Source: Patescibacteria group bacterium (GTDB lineage: Bacteria > Patescibacteriota > Microgenomatia > JAMCZE01). Taken from it: a DNA stretch of 64,000 nt. Within the stretch, counting starts at the first letter, position 1. Each line of letters begins with the position of its first letter. The notes below the pieces were generated by a model. The model saw only the letters and a program-made list of their open reading frames with translations, was not told the DNA's origin and did no database searches. Below, one piece after another: positions 4-63,037 of this stretch. The stretch is from positions 89,448 through 153,447 of the forward strand of contig JAMCZE010000010.1 of NCBI GenBank assembly GCA_023485845.1, in the 5' to 3' direction. The translations under genes were made by a program, and so were the position numbers.

Positions 4-1011
4 ATGTCTAAAAAAAAGATAATTATCATCGGGATTTTGCTGGCCGGGGTGGCTATCTTGGCAAAGTTTTTTATTTTTAAATCCCCGGCCGTTGGGGCAA
101 CGTATACCGTTAAGCGGGAGACGCTGACACAGACGTTGTCGCTCTCGGGGCAAATTGCTGCTGATCAGGACGAGGTGCTGACTTTTCAAACCGGCGGCCA
201 ACTGGCTTGGGTGGGCGTGAAAGTTGGCGACCATGTCCAAAAATACCAAGCGATCGCCTCTCTGGACCAACGGGTGCTGCAAAAAAATTTGGAGACGGCG
301 CTTAATTCCTACCTCACCAATCGCTGGACTTTTGAACAAACTAAGGATAACTATAACGGCCAGGCGGTCACCACGGCGATCCAGCGTATTTTGGACCAGT
401 CGCAATTCTCGTTAAATAACACTGTGATTTCCGTGCAGTTGGCTGATCTGGCCAAACAGTTCGCCAACCTCTATGCTCCTTTCTCAGGCATCGTCGTTCG
501 CGTTGACGCGCCCGATCCGGGCGTTAATGTCACCGCTCTGACCACCGGCTTTGAAATTATTAATCCTGACTCGCTCTATTTCTCCGCCACCGCCGACCAA
601 ACCGATGTGGTTAACCTGTCCGCCTCCGCTGCCGGGCAAATCACGCTGGATGCTTATCCCGACCAAAATTTAGATTCCCGCATCACCAGCATTGCCTTCA
701 CTCCCAAGACCGGAGAGACCGGCACCGTTTATGAAGTAAAGATGACCCTGCCCTCCTATCAGCTGTCAGCTACAAGCTATAAGCTACGTCTGGGTATGAC
801 CGGCGATGTCAACTTTGTGACCCGCGAAACCCCCGATGCCCTGGCGGTGCCCACCAAGGACATCCACACCAATCCGGACGGCAGCAAATATGTTTTAGTG
901 AAGCAACAAAATAAATCCGTGGTTCGGCCAATCACCATTGGTGAAGTCTATGATAGCCAAACCCAGATTAACAGTGGCCTGGTGGTTGGCGACCAAGTCA
1001 TTGAACAATAA
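4..1011 (+). CDS. Periplasmic adaptor (HlyD/MacA-like membrane-fusion protein) of a tripartite efflux system
   Basis: N-terminal TM helix (IIIIGILLAGVAILAKFFIF), then a long periplasmic body. The stop overlaps the start of the downstream MacB-like ABC ATPase (ATGA at 1011). Confidence 0.6.
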   Translation: MSKKKIIIIGILLAGVAILAKFFIFKSPAVGATYTVKRETLTQTLSLSGQIAADQDEVLTFQTGGQLAWVGVKVGDHVQKYQAIASLDQRVLQKNLETALNSYLTNRWTFEQTKDNYNGQAVTTAIQRILDQSQFSLNNTVISVQLADLAKQFANLYAPFSGIVVRVDAPDPGVNVTALTTGFEIINPDSLYFSATADQTDVVNLSASAAGQITLDAYPDQNLDSRITSIAFTPKTGETGTVYEVKMTLPSYQLSATSYKLRLGMTGDVNFVTRETPDALAVPTKDIHTNPDGSKYVLVKQQNKSVVRPITIGEVYDSQTQINSGLVVGDQVIEQ

Positions 1012-1682
1012 TGATTGCTTTAACCAACGTCTCCAAAACCTACACCATCGATTCTGATCAGAAGTTCACCGCTTTACGTGATGTGAGTTTAACCATTGGT
1101 GACGGTCAGTTTTGCGCCATCACCGGCCCATCCGGCAGCGGCAAATCAACCTTGATGCACATCATCGGCTTGTTGGACCTGCCCACCGCCGGCAAAGTGA
1201 TCATTGAGAACACTGACGCTTCCCGCCTGTCTGACAGTCGGCTATCAAGGCTGCGCAACGAGCACATTGGTTTTGTTTTTCAGCAGTTTAACCTGTTACC
1301 TAAACTGTCAGTGCTAGAAAATATTCTACTGCCTTCTGTTTATGCTCGACATAAATTAACCTATGATCCGGTAAAAAAAGCCCACTATTTGTTGGAACGT
1401 TTTGGCATCGCTGAGAAAGCCCACTCCTTCCCCAACAAACTTTCCGGTGGGCAGCAACAGCGCGTTGCCATCGCTCGGGCACTTATCATGGAACCGAAAC
1501 TGGTTTTGGCTGATGAACCCACCGGCAATCTGGACACCGCCACCGGTGACGAAATCATGAAGTTATTGGCAGAACTAAACAAAGAAGAAAAAATTACTAT
1601 CATTATCGTTACCCACGAACATGATATTGCCAAAAAAACCAAACGGATCATAAAAATAAAAGACGGAATGATCGAGAAATAA
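1011..1682 (+). CDS. ABC transporter ATP-binding protein, MacB/LolD/FtsE family
   Basis: Walker [13 protein letters not shown] signature [15 protein letters not shown], Walker [13 protein letters not shown]. Confidence 0.9.
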
Positions 1683-3152: not shown

Positions 3153-3770
3153 TTACCGCAGTAATTCTTCCAGCCAAATCCACCAACTACCGGTCTTATC
3201 TAAAAATGCTGATGTTATCAGCTGAAACGTCCGGAATAAATCAAAGCCGCCAGGCACGTCTTTACTGGCGGCCACTCCTAACCCGCGATTGCACAGCCAA
3301 TTTTTGCCAACCACGTGGCCGGGCAGATCCCGCATAATCACACTTTTAATCCCCAATCCTGGCGCCAGCCTTACCAACTCGGCTGCTTTTGTCGCCGACC
3401 CCTTGGCCGCCGGCAGCCAATCAACATCTTGCGGCACCACGCCGTCTGATTGCAGGCGGGTGTTGACAGTTAAGCGATCAGCTCCTGTCCATTCGGGTTG
3501 GTCAAAAACTGCCACCCGACCGGCTCGTTTCGCACCATAATCCCCGGCCGCCTGATCCAGCAGTTCCATTTGTGTCGGGCCAACGTTTCCATCCACTCCC
3601 ATCACCACCACCGCATCCGCTCTCTTCCCCGAAAAACAACTAATCCGCGCCCCGGAAACCAAATAGTTCTCCACCCGCCAGGCACTGGGCTGGTCAACAT
3701 TAACCACTACGATCGCTAAAAGGCCAACCAAGGCCCCAATTTTCACCATTCTCGCCCATTCCGCAGTCAT
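3153..3770 (-). CDS. Membrane-anchored protein, possibly DUF218/YdcF-SanA family
   Basis: N-terminal TM, then ADAVVVMGVDGN... resembling the DUF218 core. Weak by-eye similarity only. Confidence 0.35.
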   Translation of the reverse strand: MTAEWARMVKIGALVGLLAIVVVNVDQPSAWRVENYLVSGARISCFSGKRADAVVVMGVDGNVGPTQMELLDQAAGDYGAKRAGRVAVFDQPEWTGADRLTVNTRLQSDGVVPQDVDWLPAAKGSATKAAELVRLAPGLGIKSVIMRDLPGHVVGKNWLCNRGLGVAASKDVPGGFDLFRTFQLITSAFLDKTGSWWIWLEELLR

Positions 3771-3953
3771 AGCCTATAATACCATATTGACATTTCGAGA
3801 TTTTCTGGTAAACTACAGCTAACAATTTAATAATAAGCGCCCGACTGGAGTCACGATCCAGGAGCTGAGAGCCAAAATGCTCTACGGAAGTTGAACCGTA
3901 AAAATACAACAACTGGTGTCGTTGTAAGACGGAGCCTGAAATAAGGTTAATTA

Positions 3954-3981
3954 ACCAGCCAACGGGCTGGTCTTTTTATGC
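3954..3981 (+). terminator. Intrinsic terminator (CCAGCC-AACG-GGCTGG, then TCTTTTTAT)
   Basis: GC stem, 4-nt loop and T-run, seen directly. About 190 nt downstream of a TTGACA/TAAACT promoter-like pair at 3789-3817. Confidence 0.55.
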
Positions 3982-4017
3982 CTTCTTTATTCCCCGTCTT
4001 TGCTCCAGTTTGAAGAT

Positions 4018-4091
4018 GGTGGCGGAAGTCCAACGGTTGAGACATCCGGCTGTGAACCGGATTCTGGCGGGTTCAATTCCCGTCCGCCACC
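4018..4091 (+). tRNA. tRNA-His (anticodon GTG)
   Basis: Cloverleaf folded by eye. Extra G-1 pairs with C73. Acceptor GTGGCGG/CCGCCAC. Anticodon arm TCCGG-CTGTGAA-CCGGA. T arm GCGGG-TTCAATT-CCCGT. CCA not fully encoded. Confidence 0.85.
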
Positions 4092-4094
4092 CAT

Positions 4095-4352
4095 ATGGAA
4101 AGAGAGCAAAAATTTATGCCCGAACTCTGGCAATTAAAACTTTACCCTGGCACAAGCGAGTCTAAAACAATTAGACAGGTTCTTGCTGAGGAAAACGAAA
4201 GGAAAGCCACAGAGGTTGTCGGGCGGTGGAATATTGCTATCAACATTAATCCAGAGGATATTTTAGCGAAAGTCAAACCCAGGGCCGAAAGTTGGAATAG
4301 CAATACCAGACTAACAGACTTTAGTAGATTGGCAACACTTGATCTTCTCTAA
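4095..4352 (+). CDS. Hypothetical protein (85 aa), tRNA-His-adjacent
   Basis: ORF only. Overlaps the next ORF by 14 nt in another frame. Confidence 0.3.
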   Translation: MEREQKFMPELWQLKLYPGTSESKTIRQVLAEENERKATEVVGRWNIAININPEDILAKVKPRAESWNSNTRLTDFSRLATLDLL

Positions 4353-4818
4353 TTGGTTATCTAACGTTATTGCTTATGAGACCCGTCGGGCAATTAAAGC
4401 CCGCCAAACAGCAACAGTCGAGAAAAGTAAATTTCAAGACCTTGCACTAAAAGCGACAATTCTTGAACTTAAAGGCAAACCAAGCGTTCGATATGGCGAC
4501 AGCTTTAACGAAACGGTTTGTCGGGAAGCCGATATTGAACGGACCGATCTGAAAACAGCTGAAGGGATAACCATAGCAAAGATTCGAGATGCGCAAACTG
4601 ATGCCGACCTCATCAAATTCTTAGCTGCCAAGTCAACCAAAGAAGAGGCTGCCAAGTTAATAAGACTAAACAATCAGGTTCAGAGATTTCTCCCCAACCA
4701 AGAGGCAGTTTTGCGATTTATCGCTCTCACGTTTGACAACAACGGGGGATACTCTGCATTGTCAGACCTAGACGCATATAAATCTGACCCAAAACTTGAG
4801 CCAGTCCCGGTTATATAA
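4339..4818 (+). CDS. Hypothetical protein (159 aa). May be a frameshifted continuation of 4095-4352.
   Basis: ORF only. No recognisable motif. Confidence 0.35.
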   Translation: MIFSNWLSNVIAYETRRAIKARQTATVEKSKFQDLALKATILELKGKPSVRYGDSFNETVCREADIERTDLKTAEGITIAKIRDAQTDADLIKFLAAKSTKEEAAKLIRLNNQVQRFLPNQEAVLRFIALTFDNNGGYSALSDLDAYKSDPKLEPVPVI

Positions 4819-17448: not shown

Positions 17449-17793
17449 CGTATAATAGAAACATATGGCGATGGATATTGAAACCACCGGGGCCGGACCG
17501 ACAAACTGCGCGGGATGTTTAAAAAACGCTGACAGTCTGGAAGCCGGTGGGCCGGTGCAATTACCCAAGGGCATCCCCGCCATCATTGCTTCCAGACACG
17601 CCTTATCCGGCAATGACTTCGTGAATGACTCCCTATCGGAAGATGAGCGAAAATCCATTCACGCCCAAGTTGTGGTTAATGTCAGTCCATGGCTTAGTGA
17701 CAAAGAAGCCTCGCCGACGTCACCGCATTGGGAATCACTTTGTCATCTATCTCCTGAAAAGCCAAAACCGAATAATTAGTCCTTCTTATCCTC

Positions 17794-17823
17794 TTGACAA
17801 CTATGTTATTCTGAAACTAATAA
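17794..17823 (+). promoter_or_regulatory. Sigma70-like promoter (TTGACA-18-TAATAA) upstream of the Cys-rich ORF
   Basis: Hexamers seen directly. Confidence 0.3.
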
Positions 17824-17854
17824 CAAAAACAAAGTGAAGGAGGTGAAAGAAAGA

Positions 17855-18049
17855 ATGAATTGTAATTGCGCTAATTGCAAACAATTAAATTGCGGTTGTA
17901 CCACTGGCGGCAAATCATGCACTTGTTCGCAAGGTTCTTGCGACGCCACTTGCCCGCAATGCGGCGACCATTGCATGAATGTTGATGGTTCCTGCTGCTG
18001 CGGCAAACCGGCAACAACACCCGCCGGACCCTCCGCGCCGACGGAATAA
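17855..18049 (+). CDS. Metallothionein-like Cys-rich small protein (64 aa from the second ATG)
   Basis: 14 Cys in CxC/CxxC/CCC arrays, no hydrophobic core, GAAGGAGGTGA Shine-Dalgarno. Confidence 0.5.
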   Translation: MNCNCANCKQLNCGCTTGGKSCTCSQGSCDATCPQCGDHCMNVDGSCCCGKPATTPAGPSAPTE

Positions 18050-18050
18050 A

Positions 18051-18350
18051 TTAATAGACCCTGATGTGATGGCGATGAAAGAAGCCAAAGGTGTGGTTCT
18101 GTTTTGCCAGTGGCCGAACGGGGCTATAGTTTAGGTTTTGGTCATGCACCCACCGATTTGTTGCCAAGTCCAATCGTTCATATCTTTGCTGCATTAATCC
18201 ACCATCTTGGGCACCAATCACCACCGTCACCAGGCGTAGGCTCTTACTAAGGTTTATTATCGCTGCTAAATATTCTTCGTTAGTCGGCAGGAGGTGCATG
18301 GGGGTTCTCGCAAACCGCCCTAGAGTGCTTTCAGACACTTCAACTGTCAT
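18051..18350 (-). CDS. Hypothetical protein (99 aa), convergent with the Cys-rich ORF
   Basis: ORF only. Confidence 0.25.
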   Translation of the reverse strand: MTVEVSESTLGRFARTPMHLLPTNEEYLAAIINLSKSLRLVTVVIGAQDGGLMQQRYERLDLATNRWVHDQNLNYSPVRPLAKQNHTFGFFHRHHIRVY

Positions 18351-19003: not shown

Positions 19004-19216
19004 ATGAGTTTAGTGAAAACCGCCGAGATGTGCCGTCCTTGTGACCACTGCGGCGAAAAGGGGAAATGCGTTCTGAGCCACATATCCACCGCCGAACAAA
19101 TCAAACGTGAGAGAGACGGAGCTTGCGGCGACGCCCAGCAATCTGAAGCGAAAGAAAGGGTTGTCTATTTGCAAAGAGCTCTTGTTGACGGGAAGTGGGT
19201 TTGGGTTACCTGTTAA
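19004..19216 (+). CDS. Hypothetical small Cys-containing protein (70 aa)
   Basis: ORF only. Confidence 0.3.
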   Translation: MSLVKTAEMCRPCDHCGEKGKCVLSHISTAEQIKRERDGACGDAQQSEAKERVVYLQRALVDGKWVWVTC

Positions 19217-19905: not shown

Positions 19906-21208
19906 GGTTATCTTTTATTGTAAACCCTTTTTCTTCGATTTGCTTCCTAATCTCATCCGCCTGGTCATACTTGCCCTGTGCCCGCAATTTCTCCCGTTTT
20001 GCCAATAGTTCCTTAATCTCCACCGGCGTTTCTTTGATCGCGTCAAGTTTTAATCCCAACACTTGATCCATTTTTAGCAGGCTTTCATAACTGTTGGTTT
20101 TCCAGGCCACCGCCAGGGCTTTCGGCAAATTTAAATCATCGTTGACCGCCGCCAAAAATTCCACTTCATCTGCAGGGGTTGAACTCCTGTTTGTGGCTTT
20201 AAGATGCTCCGCTCGCTCCCGCAGGCGGTTTAAGGCAGTTTGCGCCCCTTCCAGAGATTGCCAGGTGAAATTTAGCCCGGTGCGATAGTGGGAATTAAGA
20301 ATTAAATAACGGTGGGCCAGGGGGTCAAAACCCTTAGCGATCAAATCCTGCACCGTCACGTTATTGCCCAAACTCTTGCTCATTTTCTCGCCGTTTATCA
20401 CCAGCCACTCGTTATGAAGCCAAAAGTTGGCCGTCTGGTGGCCAAACGCGCCATAGGCTTGGGCGATTTCGTCGGTGTGGTGGACCGGGATATGCTCCTT
20501 ACCGCCGGTGTGAATGTCAAACGTTTCCCCCAGATATTTGACGGACATGGCCGTGCACTCGATGTGCCAGCCGGGAAAGCCGACGCCCCAAGGGCTGTCC
20601 CATTTCATCACGTGCTCCGGCTGGTTGGTCACCCAAAGGAGAAAGTCCCAGGGCTGTTTTTTCCCCGGATCCACCGCCACCCGCGCCCCGGCCTCCTGTT
20701 TTTTTAAATTTAACTTAGCAAATCGCGCATAATCGGGGAATTTTGCCGTGTCAAAAACCAAACCGGTGGCCGTTTTATAGGCAAATCCGTTCGCTTCAAT
20801 TTTTTTAATTAATTCGATTTGTTCGGGAATATGCTGCGTCGCCCGGCACAAAACATCCGGCTGTTGGACATTTAAAGCCTCCATGCTATCGATGAATTGG
20901 GAAATATATTTGTCGGCAATCTGCCAGACGGACAGACCTTCCCGCTTAGCGCCCTTTTCCATTTTGTCTTCACCGGCGTCTTCGTCGGAAGTCATGTGGC
21001 CAACGTCGGTGATGTTCATCACCCATTTAACCGCCACTTTCTCAAAACGCAGCGCCCGCACCAAACAATCCCAGTGGACATAGGCATACATGTGGCCCAG
21101 ATGCTGGTTCCAATAAACCGTCGGGCCGCAGGAATAGATCCCGACCTGGCCCTCTTTGATCGGTCGAAATTCCTCAATTTTCCGAGTTAAAGTATTAAAT
21201 AATTTCAC
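19892..21208 (-). CDS. cysS: Cysteine--tRNA ligase
   Basis: HIGH-type HLGH and KMSKS motifs, class I CysRS architecture. Confidence 0.9.
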   Translation of the reverse strand: MKLFNTLTRKIEEFRPIKEGQVGIYSCGPTVYWNQHLGHMYAYVHWDCLVRALRFEKVAVKWVMNITDVGHMTSDEDAGEDKMEKGAKREGLSVWQIADKYISQFIDSMEALNVQQPDVLCRATQHIPEQIELIKKIEANGFAYKTATGLVFDTAKFPDYARFAKLNLKKQEAGARVAVDPGKKQPWDFLLWVTNQPEHVMKWDSPWGVGFPGWHIECTAMSVKYLGETFDIHTGGKEHIPVHHTDEIAQAYGAFGHQTANFWLHNEWLVINGEKMSKSLGNNVTVQDLIAKGFDPLAHRYLILNSHYRTGLNFTWQSLEGAQTALNRLRERAEHLKATNRSSTPADEVEFLAAVNDDLNLPKALAVAWKTNSYESLLKMDQVLGLKLDAIKETPVEIKELLAKREKLRAQGKYDQADEIRKQIEEKGFTIKDNRVGK

Positions 21209-21632
21209 CTGAATGGATTATATATTTTTACTTCCTTGCTGGCCGAAAAGTGCTTATCTTCGCTAACTAAAAAATCCATCGTATGAGCCTGGGCGGTCGC
21301 CATTAAAAAAAGGTCCATCACGTGCAATTTGCTACTTTTAAGATATTTACTAAAAATATTAATCGTTTCCTGGTTCGGATAAATGACTGTCAGCTCAGAA
21401 ATAAGTTTCTCAATACCCACCGAGATAGAAGTGCCATCCACATGATAGGTGTTTTGTAGGACGGATGATAATTCTAAAATATTCTGCGAAGAAATAAAGC
21501 CAGACAGTTCACCATCAGAAATCCTTTCAAACAGAGGCCGCACCAAACTATGCTTTTGCGATTGTGCATTTAAATATGCTACTAAAATGTTAGTGTCCAA
21601 CAGGCACTTTGCGCCGGAGGTAGGAATCATAG
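21205..21632 (-). CDS. vapC: PIN-domain toxin (VapC-like). Start ambiguous (ATG at 21632 or TTG at about 21599).
   Basis: LLDTNILVAYL N-terminal PIN signature with later acidic residues. Overlaps the upstream small ORF. Confidence 0.7.
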
Positions 21633-21835
21633 AGCTCCTCTCTGGACGGGGGGTTCTTCCCGCCAAGATTGTATTTACCAGCAAGATCCATTAACTTACT
21701 TGCCTTGGGCCTAGTTCCACCCAATTTTTTCTGGACTATCCCAGAAAAGGACGTTCTTTGTTGAAACGCCTCAAGGCGCAAAGTTTCATACAGATCTTGC
21801 GGCATAGTGATGGTGGTGCGGACTAATGCGTTCAT
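21590..21835 (-). CDS. Putative antitoxin (VapB-like) of the PIN toxin
   Basis: 81-aa ORF immediately upstream of the PIN gene and overlapping it. Confidence 0.5.
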   Translation of the reverse strand: MNALVRTTITMPQDLYETLRLEAFQQRTSFSGIVQKKLGGTRPKASKLMDLAGKYNLGGKNPPSREELYDSYLRRKVPVGH

Positions 21836-59296: not shown

Positions 59297-60118
59297 ATGG
59301 GTCACAAGGATTCAGAAGTCTATGAACGGCGCAATCCCTTCGAGAACGAAGAGATTCTAAAAAAACTAGCTCATATCACTGACATCGCCATTAAAGCGGG
59401 TATTCCCGTGGAGCAAATTGTCCATGTCGGGGGTATTGCCCCAATGATTCACACCTGCATCGCCACCGGCAGTGCCCGATATGCCATCAACTGGCGGGGC
59501 ACCCGCGACCTGGACTTTGCCCTGACAATAAATAATGGTCCCCAACGCTTGGCTGACGCTTTGGAAGGTGCCGGTGTGCAAGTCACCAACCGGCGGCCAT
59601 CGAAAAGTATCCCCCATAAACACGCTGTTGAGATCGAACTCACAACCGGAAAAGGATTGTTTCCCTCCGGAAGGATCCTGGAAATCGACGTCTATGGCGG
59701 TGACTCCAAGGGCAGAGCTCGGATTAACGATCGGATTGCTCACCCATACCCGGGAAAATTTATCCGTGACCAGGCAATAACTCACACATGTTGGGGGCAC
59801 CAATTCACTGTCCCCAGCCTGATTGACACCTTAACTCTAAAAATGGACGTGGCAAAGGAAACCGACCGGCCGAAGGACACAATTGACATTTCTTCTCTCA
59901 TCTTCTCCGCCGAGCAATCCGGAGTGGCACCAGGCGACCTAATTAAGGCTCTAACGGAAGCTTATTCCACTCATGGCATTCCCCACCCAACCTGGACACT
60001 TCAGGTGGCACCAACCCTGAGAGCAATCATTGATAAAACACCCAACCTCAGAAGGTTTGACTTCGCTCCGGTAGCATCCCGGGGCTATATCAGCAAAATA
60101 GCCGAGTCAATAAAGTAG
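59297..60118 (+). CDS. Nucleotidyltransferase-fold protein, AbiEii-like (possible type IV TA toxin), orphan
   Basis: VHVGGIAPMIH...ARYAINWRGTRDLDFAL resembles the AbiEii GGTAL...SEDLDF core. About 270 aa. No AbiEi-like partner seen. Confidence 0.4.
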   Translation: MGHKDSEVYERRNPFENEEILKKLAHITDIAIKAGIPVEQIVHVGGIAPMIHTCIATGSARYAINWRGTRDLDFALTINNGPQRLADALEGAGVQVTNRRPSKSIPHKHAVEIELTTGKGLFPSGRILEIDVYGGDSKGRARINDRIAHPYPGKFIRDQAITHTCWGHQFTVPSLIDTLTLKMDVAKETDRPKDTIDISSLIFSAEQSGVAPGDLIKALTEAYSTHGIPHPTWTLQVAPTLRAIIDKTPNLRRFDFAPVASRGYISKIAESIK

Positions 60119-62022: not shown

Positions 62023-62601
62023 CACAGCTGGATTTTGAAGCCACAAGGACTCCAATTGGGCCGTTGATATGCCCTGTTTTTCAGGTTCGAACTCTCCTGA
62101 AGCTGTCGGTTCCACCTTTATAATCTCTCCAAAGAATAAATATGGCCTTTGCACGTCCAGATGCAACGTTTGACCTTCTAAAATTAGGTTCGAACCAATT
62201 GTGTTGAGGATGTCCCGCTTCTCCTCCAAACTCCCTATGGAAAATTTGTAACGGGCTTGCACGGCGAAATCCAAGGCTCTTTCCAAGTTCTCGATCCAAT
62301 TCTCAATCCGCTTGCCGGTATTACCCATTCGCTCTTCTAGCTGTCGTTTTTCGCTAACAATAGATTCCTTTTGGGACTTAAATTCGTCATCCGAAAGCAA
62401 TGAACCATCAGTATTCTGCGGAGAAATTTTTAATTTAACTAAATTATCCAACCTTTGAATACAACTATCATAATTCTTTTGCACTTCTTGTAGAACGGTG
62501 TTTCTATCTTGAACCTCTTCTGTAGTGACACTCCTCGCAGCAAGCTGCGAGGCATCTGCATTGCTAAAATAGCCTGAGTTGGTCTTTTGATATTTGGACA
62601 T
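61993..62601 (-). CDS. Hypothetical protein (202 aa). Its 3' end runs antisense through the tRNA-Trp 3' half.
   Basis: ORF. Coiled-coil-like sequence. Confidence 0.4.
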   Translation of the reverse strand: MSKYQKTNSGYFSNADASQLAARSVTTEEVQDRNTVLQEVQKNYDSCIQRLDNLVKLKISPQNTDGSLLSDDEFKSQKESIVSEKRQLEERMGNTGKRIENWIENLERALDFAVQARYKFSIGSLEEKRDILNTIGSNLILEGQTLHLDVQRPYLFFGEIIKVEPTASGEFEPEKQGISTAQLESLWLQNPAVQGQVESNYH

Positions 62602-63037
62602 AGTCTTTTGGTCTTCCTTGGTTTCTGATGTACTTTTGGATGACTGTCTCAGAATTGCTTCGTCCTACTGAATTTACGAAATACCCGTCAGTCCAAAACT
62701 GGGCTCCCCAAAGGCTTTCCCTCAACCCGGCAACTCGTTTGAGAAGTTCCCGGGCCAGGATACTTTTGACCGTTCTGGCAATTTTGGTAGGAGAATATGT
62801 AGGCACTGACTGGATCAAAAAATGGACATGATCACCGTCGGCCCCAATCTCCACAAAATGCATCTCGTACCTTTGGGAAATTTCCTGACAGATCTGTTTT
62901 AGTTGGGCATCCACCTCTGTCGAGATCACGAGTTGCCTTCCCTTGGCCACACAAACCAGATGGTACAAAAGCACCGAGACATTGTGCGCTTTGTGTATGT
63001 AGATACTCACGCATACAATTTTACCCTCTCGCGGCAA
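62564..63037 (-). mobile_element. tnpA: IS200/IS605-family transposase TnpA (Y1 HUH)
   Basis: HUH motif DHVHFLIQ and catalytic Tyr region TDGYFVNSVG. 157 aa. Confidence 0.85.

Follow-up and report, generated by a model that had tools for sequence, protein, structure and literature searches.

Between a 104-aa hypothetical ORF and an antisense 99-aa hypothetical ORF, the window (the whole 64-kb stretch of DNA analysed here) carries a small Cys-rich ORF that is without annotation in public records. Its translation, MNCNCANCKQLNCGCTTGGKSCTCSQGSCDATCPQCGDHCMNVDGSCCCGKPATTPAGPSAPTE, corresponds to a 6.3-kDa protein of 64 residues, 14 of which are Cys, making up 21.9% of the full sequence and 28.6% of a 49-aa core. 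The spacing of these residues is C-x-C-x2-C-x4-C-x-C-x6-C-x-C-x4-C-x3-C-x2-C-x3-C-x6-CCC, and the translation thus agrees with an earlier sequence-only reading of this DNA, which had described 14 Cys in 64 residues arranged as CxC, CxxC and CCC. The same reading had found no aromatic or hydrophobic core, and indeed Phe, Trp, Tyr, Ile and Arg are absent from the protein, while Leu, Val and His occur once each. The Cys richness of the ORF is an extreme outlier and no product of chance. Of the 52-aa stretches in the 543 stop-free six-frame segments of the 64-kb window that reach 52 aa, the runner-up contains seven Cys; Cys averages 0.94% in the window's long ORFs; and the binomial probability of such a Cys content at the six-frame Cys rate is 7e-11. 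Read directly, the N-terminus shows no hydrophobic segment, and neither a signal peptide nor a leader is present in the protein; its first Cys is residue 3, and it therefore has no leader.

Table 1 Features at the Cys-rich locus of the window, and tRNA genes at the loci of four relatives.
Feature	Position	Strand	Remarks
104-aa hypothetical ORF	17465-17779	+	separates the Cys-rich ORF from a TspO/M23 neighbour
-35-like hexamer TTGACA (candidate promoter)	17794-17799	+	perfect -35; 61 nt upstream of ATG
Weak -10 candidate TAATAA	17818-17823	+	18-nt spacer; matches TATAAT at 3/6 positions; assignment uncertain
Shine-Dalgarno AAGGAGGTGA	17837-17846	+	10 nt; 8 nt upstream of ATG
Cys-rich CDS	17855-18049	+	ATG at 17855, TAA at 18047-18049 included; 64 aa; no annotation in public records
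99-aa hypothetical ORF M1484_03700	18051-18350	-	separates the Cys-rich ORF from a TspO/M23 neighbour
Long imperfect hairpin, possible terminator (uncertain)	18072-18147		76 nt; downstream of stop
tRNA-Glu(CTC)	L006 3353-3427		~340 nt upstream of Cys-rich gene
tRNA-Glu(CTC)	L008 485-557		~540 nt upstream of Cys-rich gene
tRNA-Glu(CTC)	L013 3589-3661		~60 nt upstream of Cys-rich gene
tRNA-Glu(CTC)	L014 737-808		~60 nt upstream of Cys-rich gene

The ORF is preceded by a strong Shine-Dalgarno sequence, as had been claimed, and this element recurs in relatives of the gene (described below). Of the six other loci with DNA, five carry AAGGRGGTGA 7–8 nt ahead of the start, the remaining one (L014) having a weaker GAGGAGGTGA with a 5-nt spacer, and the full start context of AAGGRGGTGA, 7–8 nt and ATGAAT is seen in six of seven loci. 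An in-frame GTG at 17834 was considered as an alternative start and rejected, as it lies upstream of the Shine-Dalgarno sequence and overlaps it. The further claim that the gene has its own promoter holds for one half of that promoter: a perfect -35 hexamer starts 15 nt past the point where the preceding 104-aa ORF ends, but the -10 element is poor. Besides TAATAA, a second weak candidate (ACTAAT) lies at a 16-nt spacing from TTGACA, and a consensus promoter scan called no plus-strand promoter in the TTGACA region, TAATAA failing the criteria of the scan. A TTGAYW box is found ~55–65 nt upstream of the start in six of seven loci, it lies between a tRNA-Glu gene and the Cys-rich ORF in four loci, and in L007 it is preceded by a terminator-like hairpin with a T-run, as judged by eye. 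Going by these signals, the Cys-rich gene is probably an independent transcription unit.

The hairpin downstream of the stop codon has an RNA folding energy of -35.4 kcal/mol (z = -2.5 against shuffles), and a terminator scan reports a weak terminator-like site at 18110–18127. It lies inside the antisense 99-aa ORF, for which neither homologues nor domains were found, and either the hairpin or this ORF may be spurious. The hairpin may be a terminator shared by the convergent genes, and the 99-aa call may be spurious or overlong. The stop codon of the 99-aa ORF abuts that of the Cys-rich gene.

The Cys-rich gene is an annotation blind spot, despite strong selection and its 10-nt Shine-Dalgarno sequence. 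The window is 100% identical to contigs of GCA_023378825.1 and of three Logan assemblies, and in none of those contigs is a gene called between the two flanking hypothetical ORFs. Neither of the two NCBI records of the source organism annotates it, the PGAP locus tags on its two sides (M1484_03695 and M1484_03700) being consecutive, and a 15-billion-protein collection has neither its exact 64-aa form nor its exact 71-aa form. Among the nine sequences of the family, three have ever been called as genes. At one locus (L013), the cause of the omission can be seen, as the ORF (3727–3900) is masked by a YkuD L,D-transpeptidase call (3791–4573) that is over-extended upstream to a GTG, giving 260 aa where relatives have 226 aa. 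Three other contigs of the source organism show no difference at the locus (100% identity) and are thus uninformative on variation. The window bridges two contigs of GCA_023378825.1, JAMCSA010000003 and JAMCSA010000010, and so derives from a less fragmented assembly of the same organism, for which a 227.5 kb contig also exists.

Relatives of the protein are few. Searched exhaustively with phmmer, 1.84 billion representatives yielded three small proteins, P0002 (65 aa), P0003 (56 aa) and P0005 (73 aa), at E-values from 1e-16 to 3e-9, and a scan of metagenome DNA contributed the loci L007, L008 and L009, the last of them partial. Two uncalled copies were found via neighbouring genes, one in L013 and one in L014 (869–1054), the latter from a groundwater metagenome. 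In total, the family comprises nine distinct sequences, namely the window protein and eight metagenomic relatives. A word-indexed protein search with alignments yielded no relatives beyond P0002, P0003 and P0005, the same type of search with a single sequence as query gave no match, and no relative was found on viral contigs.

Comparison of these sequences indicates that the ORF is a gene. All 14 Cys columns are invariant in the protein alignment, with switching between TGT and TGC at every one of them. Among the seven full-length loci, dN/dS is 0.07–0.18 where computable, with dN of 0.07–0.37 and dS saturated between clades; nucleotide differences at codon positions 1, 2 and 3 number 174, 155 and 459, respectively; and the reading frame of the Cys-rich ORF, and no other, stays open at each of the seven loci for which there is full DNA. 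Because its Cys are conserved through codon flips, dN/dS is low, third-position differences are in excess and the start context is conserved, the Cys-rich ORF is a genuine gene, under strong purifying selection on its Cys. Eleven other residues (N2, N7, K9, G19, G27, D30, P34, M41, D44, G45 and G50) are invariant as well, and His39 is mostly conserved, with Val in its place in two members. Across the alignment of nine, the whole Cys-rich region is conserved and the C-terminal tail is variable. Family members have masses of 5.7–7.9 kDa, Cys contents of 19–25% overall and 27–29% in the core, and a neutral to acidic net charge of -7 to 0, and no Phe, Trp or Tyr occurs in the core of any of the eight full-length members. 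Low mass, high Cys content and few or no aromatic residues are the compositional features by which metallothioneins are operationally recognised, and the family shows all of them.

As judged by sequence and profile comparison, the Cys-rich protein belongs to no described family. An hmmscan against Pfam-A gave the window protein no family at E ≤ 1 and seven family members none at E ≤ 10, so that PF02069, the models of eukaryotic metallothioneins and those of ferredoxins and zinc ribbons all went unmatched at the latter threshold. Membership in PF02069, which the sequence-only reading had put forward for an HMM search, is therefore contradicted for all family members searched (zero matches at E ≤ 10), and its metallothionein-like label stands for the composition and the invariant, selected Cys but finds no counterpart in PF02069, in other Pfam models or in NCBIfam. 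NCBIfam, including its RiPP precursor models, had no match to any of nine members at E ≤ 10, and searches of PHROGs and of the PDB by sequence and by profile returned none for the family. AlphaFold2, run on a four-sequence alignment, produced a model with a pLDDT of 57.6 and almost no secondary structure, a low confidence that is expected for a metal-dependent fold; a Foldseek search of this low-confidence model against the PDB gave no matches and is uninformative. In the literature, nothing relevant was found on metallothioneins in Patescibacteria or on Cys-rich small proteins in CPR.

Two sets of apparent relatives were rejected. Among the matches listed in a genome pattern scan was an aldolase-like ORF of Neomoorella stamsii that shares the peptide CTCSQGSCDA-C with the Cys-rich protein, which we attribute to chance, there being no further shared Cys. 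The N. stamsii ORF (NZ_PVXL01000045.1, L001 7263–8288) encodes 341 aa, contains CTCSQGSCDASC, near-identical to residues 22–33 of the query, and is aldolase-like by eye; the small ORFs flanking it resemble microcompartment shell proteins. A Cys-rich insert in such an enzyme is itself odd, though the 8-mer match is judged to be chance. The second set (P0001, P0004, P0006 and P0007) consists of zinc-ribbon or RanBP-type finger repeat proteins, whose scores accumulate over their repeats.

Residues 27–62 of the window protein nevertheless align without gaps to the tandem CPxCG...CGCG repeats of three of these proteins (P0001, P0004 and P0007). The alignment spans 36 aa at 39% identity and scores 28.5 bits, and comparison with composition-matched shuffles gives z = 9.8. 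Since these repeats match many Pfam Zn_ribbon models, we describe the C-terminal half as zinc-ribbon-like: its sequence resembles a CPxCG...CxCG zinc ribbon, with the knuckles C33-P-Q-C36-G and C47-C-C49-G present in all family members. In their spacing, the CPQCG and CxCG knuckles resemble those of zinc ribbons (CPxCG...CxCG, ~10–15 residues apart) and small CPxCG zinc-finger proteins, whereas the window protein differs from these in matching no Zn_ribbon model, in having ten additional invariant Cys and in not being basic.

For comparison with known metallothioneins, we used textbook sequences rather than database records. In Smith-Waterman alignments with these sequences, the SmtA score fell short of the shuffled mean; z was 1–2.3 for MymT, human MT2, wheat Ec-1 and Neurospora CuMT, and yeast Cup1 reached z = 4.6, better than 500 of 500 composition-matched shuffles, through the spacing CxC...CxC...CP-CG...SCCxGK. 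Since no described metallothionein attains database-level significance (none at E ≤ 1e-3 in the exhaustive phmmer search), these likenesses probably reflect convergence. The fungal Cu metallothioneins Cup1 and Neurospora CuMT share with the window protein the repeated CxC, a terminal CC(C)xGK, and a similar length and Cys fraction; however, their hosts belong to a different kingdom, which makes convergence likely here too, and Cu binding by the window protein is only putative.

The bacterial BmtA/SmtA family (PF02069; SmtA, PflQ2 MT and PmtA) is a close parallel in kind, also consisting of small, cytoplasmic, Cys-rich bacterial proteins, but a sequence relationship to the window protein is absent, given the lack of Pfam matches and the sub-shuffle SmtA score. 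SmtA binds metal through nine Cys and two His. Members of that family have nine Cys and one or two His, compared with 14 Cys and no invariant His here; they carry aromatic residues in a zinc-finger fold, compared with none in the core here; and no SmtB-type repressor lies near the Cys-rich gene. A likeness of architecture does exist, in that SmtA has a zinc-finger-like element within its metal-thiolate cluster and the Cys-rich protein has a zinc-ribbon-like half, the SmtA zinc finger being embedded in a Zn4 cluster (Blindauer 2001, cited in PMC7387436).

The neighbourhood of the gene varies between clades. TspO (PF03073, 1.6e-48) and an M23 peptidase (PF01551, 1.1e-11) had been placed next door to it in the window; both are nearby, but one hypothetical gene intervenes in each case and neither is conserved in relatives. 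Because they are not conserved beside the gene, they carry no functional information, and we rejected a functional link to either. In L006, L008, L013 and L014 the order is GreA (minus strand), tRNA-Glu, the Cys-rich ORF, AbiEii in some cases, YkuD and AspRS; in L005 a LOG-family gene precedes the ORF; and in L007/L017 the ORF follows a GH26 gene and is convergent with a membrane protein gene. The 8-nt overlap of the YkuD and Cys-rich genes in L006 suggests that the two are co-transcribed in that subclade. A functional link to the YkuD L,D-transpeptidase was nonetheless rejected, as all four loci belong to one subclade and represent a single evolutionary event. No metal transporter and no ArsR/SmtB, CsoR or MerR regulator was found in the 64-kb window, and no metal transporter or metal-sensing regulator adjoins the Cys-rich gene in any locus.

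We hold with moderate confidence, based on sequence, that the gene encodes a cytoplasmic metallothionein-like metal-thiolate cluster protein with a zinc-ribbon-like core, representing a new family in Patescibacteria. The ORF would be translated efficiently into a cytoplasmic, leaderless mini-protein, the 49-residue core of which would be held together by metal bound to the 14 invariant Cys instead of by a hydrophobic core, with the invariant Asp30, Met41 and Asp44 and the mostly conserved His39 possibly assisting in metal binding. Within this core, the C-terminal CPQCG...CCCG would form a pair of zinc-ribbon knuckles using four Cys, and the CxC-rich N-terminal half would supply bridging thiolates for a metal-thiolate cluster, ten Cys lying beyond the ribbon. 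A fold dictated by metal is suggested because the protein is cytoplasmic and neutral to acidic, lacks aromatics and has a very Cys-dense core in which every Cys is selected, and the neutral to acidic charge additionally argues against a nucleic-acid-binding zinc finger.

Such a protein might hold ~5 Zn(II) or Cd(II) ions, or ~8–10 Cu(I) ions. The figure for divalent ions is predicted from the Cys-to-metal ratios of characterised metallothioneins, and that for Cu(I) rests on Cup1 and MymT. As to the preferred metal, Met41, CxC and CCC lean slightly to Cu(I), and the ribbon knuckles lean to Zn(II). For characterised proteins, the metal counts are 4 Zn in SmtA, 3 Zn or 4 Cd in PflQ2 MT and 6 Zn in Ec-1 (PMC10612145). 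Given the strong ribosome-binding site and the lack, at every locus, of a neighbouring metal-sensing regulator, we infer that the protein may serve as a constitutive buffer or store of Zn or Cu rather than as an inducible detoxifier. In Pseudomonas metallothioneins, too, the C-terminal tail is disordered and an adjacent or operon-encoded metal regulator is lacking, and constitutive buffering or storage has been proposed for them (PMC7387436).

Several observations sit uneasily with the metallothionein-like reading. There is no significant similarity to any described metallothionein family, nor does a metal transporter or metal-sensing regulator adjoin the gene at any of the loci. The even count of invariant Cys would also suit seven disulfides, and a VKOR gene is present in one locus. 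A Cys-dense zinc-ribbon core would equally suit a purely structural multi-zinc domain with no storage role. Finally, the family is very small, and its sole labelled member comes from a Patescibacteria MAG, NCBI listing the neighbouring proteins under a 'Patescibacteria group bacterium'.

If metal binding is true, bacterial metallothioneins would gain a third type, unrelated in sequence to the SmtA/BmtA family and to MymT, and, as far as we found, the protein would be the first metallothionein described from Patescibacteria (CPR), about whose metal homeostasis next to nothing is known. Because the family is tiny and its function putative, the gene is of modest practical importance. A new Cys-rich metal binder would overturn nothing; its value lies in providing a clean candidate and an example of a gene-calling blind spot. 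We accordingly describe the family as new, very small and unannotated, and its members as putative metallothioneins.

The best-surviving alternative, which we consider unlikely, is a structural multi-zinc mini-protein, that is, a zinc-ribbon-derived Cys-cluster adaptor or regulator that binds a protein partner, similar to archaeal small CPxCG proteins. The alignment of the CPxCG and CxCG knuckles with zinc-ribbon repeats speaks for it, as does the strict conservation of 11 non-Cys residues, from N2 to G50, and small CPxCG zinc-finger regulators are known, Brz being an example (PMC2253796). A zinc ribbon, however, explains just four of the 14 Cys, and a content of 27–29% Cys together with CCC and three CxC motifs goes well beyond ordinary zinc fingers. 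The protein is also not basic, and no partner gene is conserved beside it, the context varying between clades.

A bolder form of the metal-cluster idea would make the protein the founding member of an unseen prokaryotic class of metal-cluster proteins, specific to Patescibacteria and invisible to gene callers, with a new fold in which a ribbon is elaborated to 14 Cys, and serving as the main Zn or Cu store or as a polythiol redox buffer in place of low-molecular-weight thiols; we regard this as distinctly unlikely. Ultra-small Patescibacteria symbionts with reduced genomes may be unable to make such thiols.

Quite improbable, in our assessment, is a small iron-sulfur protein, either a mini-ferredoxin-like carrier or an Fe-S scaffold, with a [4Fe-4S] or [2Fe-2S] cluster. 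Many invariant Cys in a cytoplasmic protein would suit this, as would the probably anoxic habitats, one relative coming from the groundwater metagenome. Yet the Cys spacing lacks the ferredoxin motif CxxCxxCxxxCP, neither Fer4 nor any other Fe-S model of Pfam is matched at E ≤ 10, the phmmer search of 1.84 billion representatives returned no ferredoxin at E ≤ 1e-3, and hydrophobic residues that could shield a cluster from solvent are almost absent.

The sequence-only reading had also named a RiPP precursor as an alternative, which the data disfavour. We consider it very improbable that the gene encodes such a precursor or a secreted disulfide-rich peptide (a toxin or bacteriocin), with its maturase or exporter encoded elsewhere in the genome. 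The protein is short and Cys-rich like the Cys-rich RiPP precursors (SCIFF/ranthipeptides and lanthipeptides), its Cys count is even, its C-terminal tail is variable, and at L017 a VKOR-family gene (disulfide-bond formation; 825–1244, minus strand) lies two genes from the ORF, in this one context, as a single hint of an oxidised, extracytoplasmic form. Against this, the protein has neither leader nor signal peptide, no family member matches an NCBIfam precursor model, and it is the Cys-rich part that is conserved, the reverse of the usual RiPP pattern of a conserved leader and a variable core. Genes for radical-SAM, LanM, LanB/C, YcaO or a peptidase-ABC exporter were not found in the 64-kb window or in five other genomic contexts of relatives; the earlier statement that no radical-SAM or LanM gene lies in the window was thus correct, YcaO being absent too, and the maturases outside the window that were named as grounds for abandoning a metallothionein did not appear in those five contexts. 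Of negligible probability is a reading in which the ORF is there by chance or encodes a cis-acting leader peptide rich in Cys codons and not a functional protein. Prodigal-type callers and PGAP did skip this very short ORF of odd composition, but such a reading is effectively refuted by the comparative data, namely the low dN/dS with saturated dS between clades, the 3-fold third-position excess, a frame that alone is open in all seven loci and the conserved start codon and Shine-Dalgarno, while the downstream gene, being convergent in the window, leaves a leader peptide nothing to attenuate.

Elsewhere, the window contains housekeeping genes (ribosomal proteins, aminoacyl-tRNA synthetases, RecR, DnaX, MreBC, PBP2 and thymidylate metabolism) as well as toxin-antitoxin genes. 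Amid the housekeeping genes lie an IS200-like Y1 transposase (62564–63037, minus strand; PF01797, 4.7e-34), a weak AbiEii-like nucleotidyltransferase (59297–60118, plus strand) and a PIN toxin (21205–21835, minus strand) with an 81-aa putative antitoxin upstream. Starting 9 nt past the M23 peptidase gene, a 70-aa ORF (19004–19216, plus strand) contains the motif CRPCDHCGEKGKC (CxxCxxC-x5-C), finds no match in Pfam or NCBIfam and forms a single-member cluster; Logan assemblies call it, but the NCBI record does not. A further small zinc-binding protein without annotation may be encoded there.
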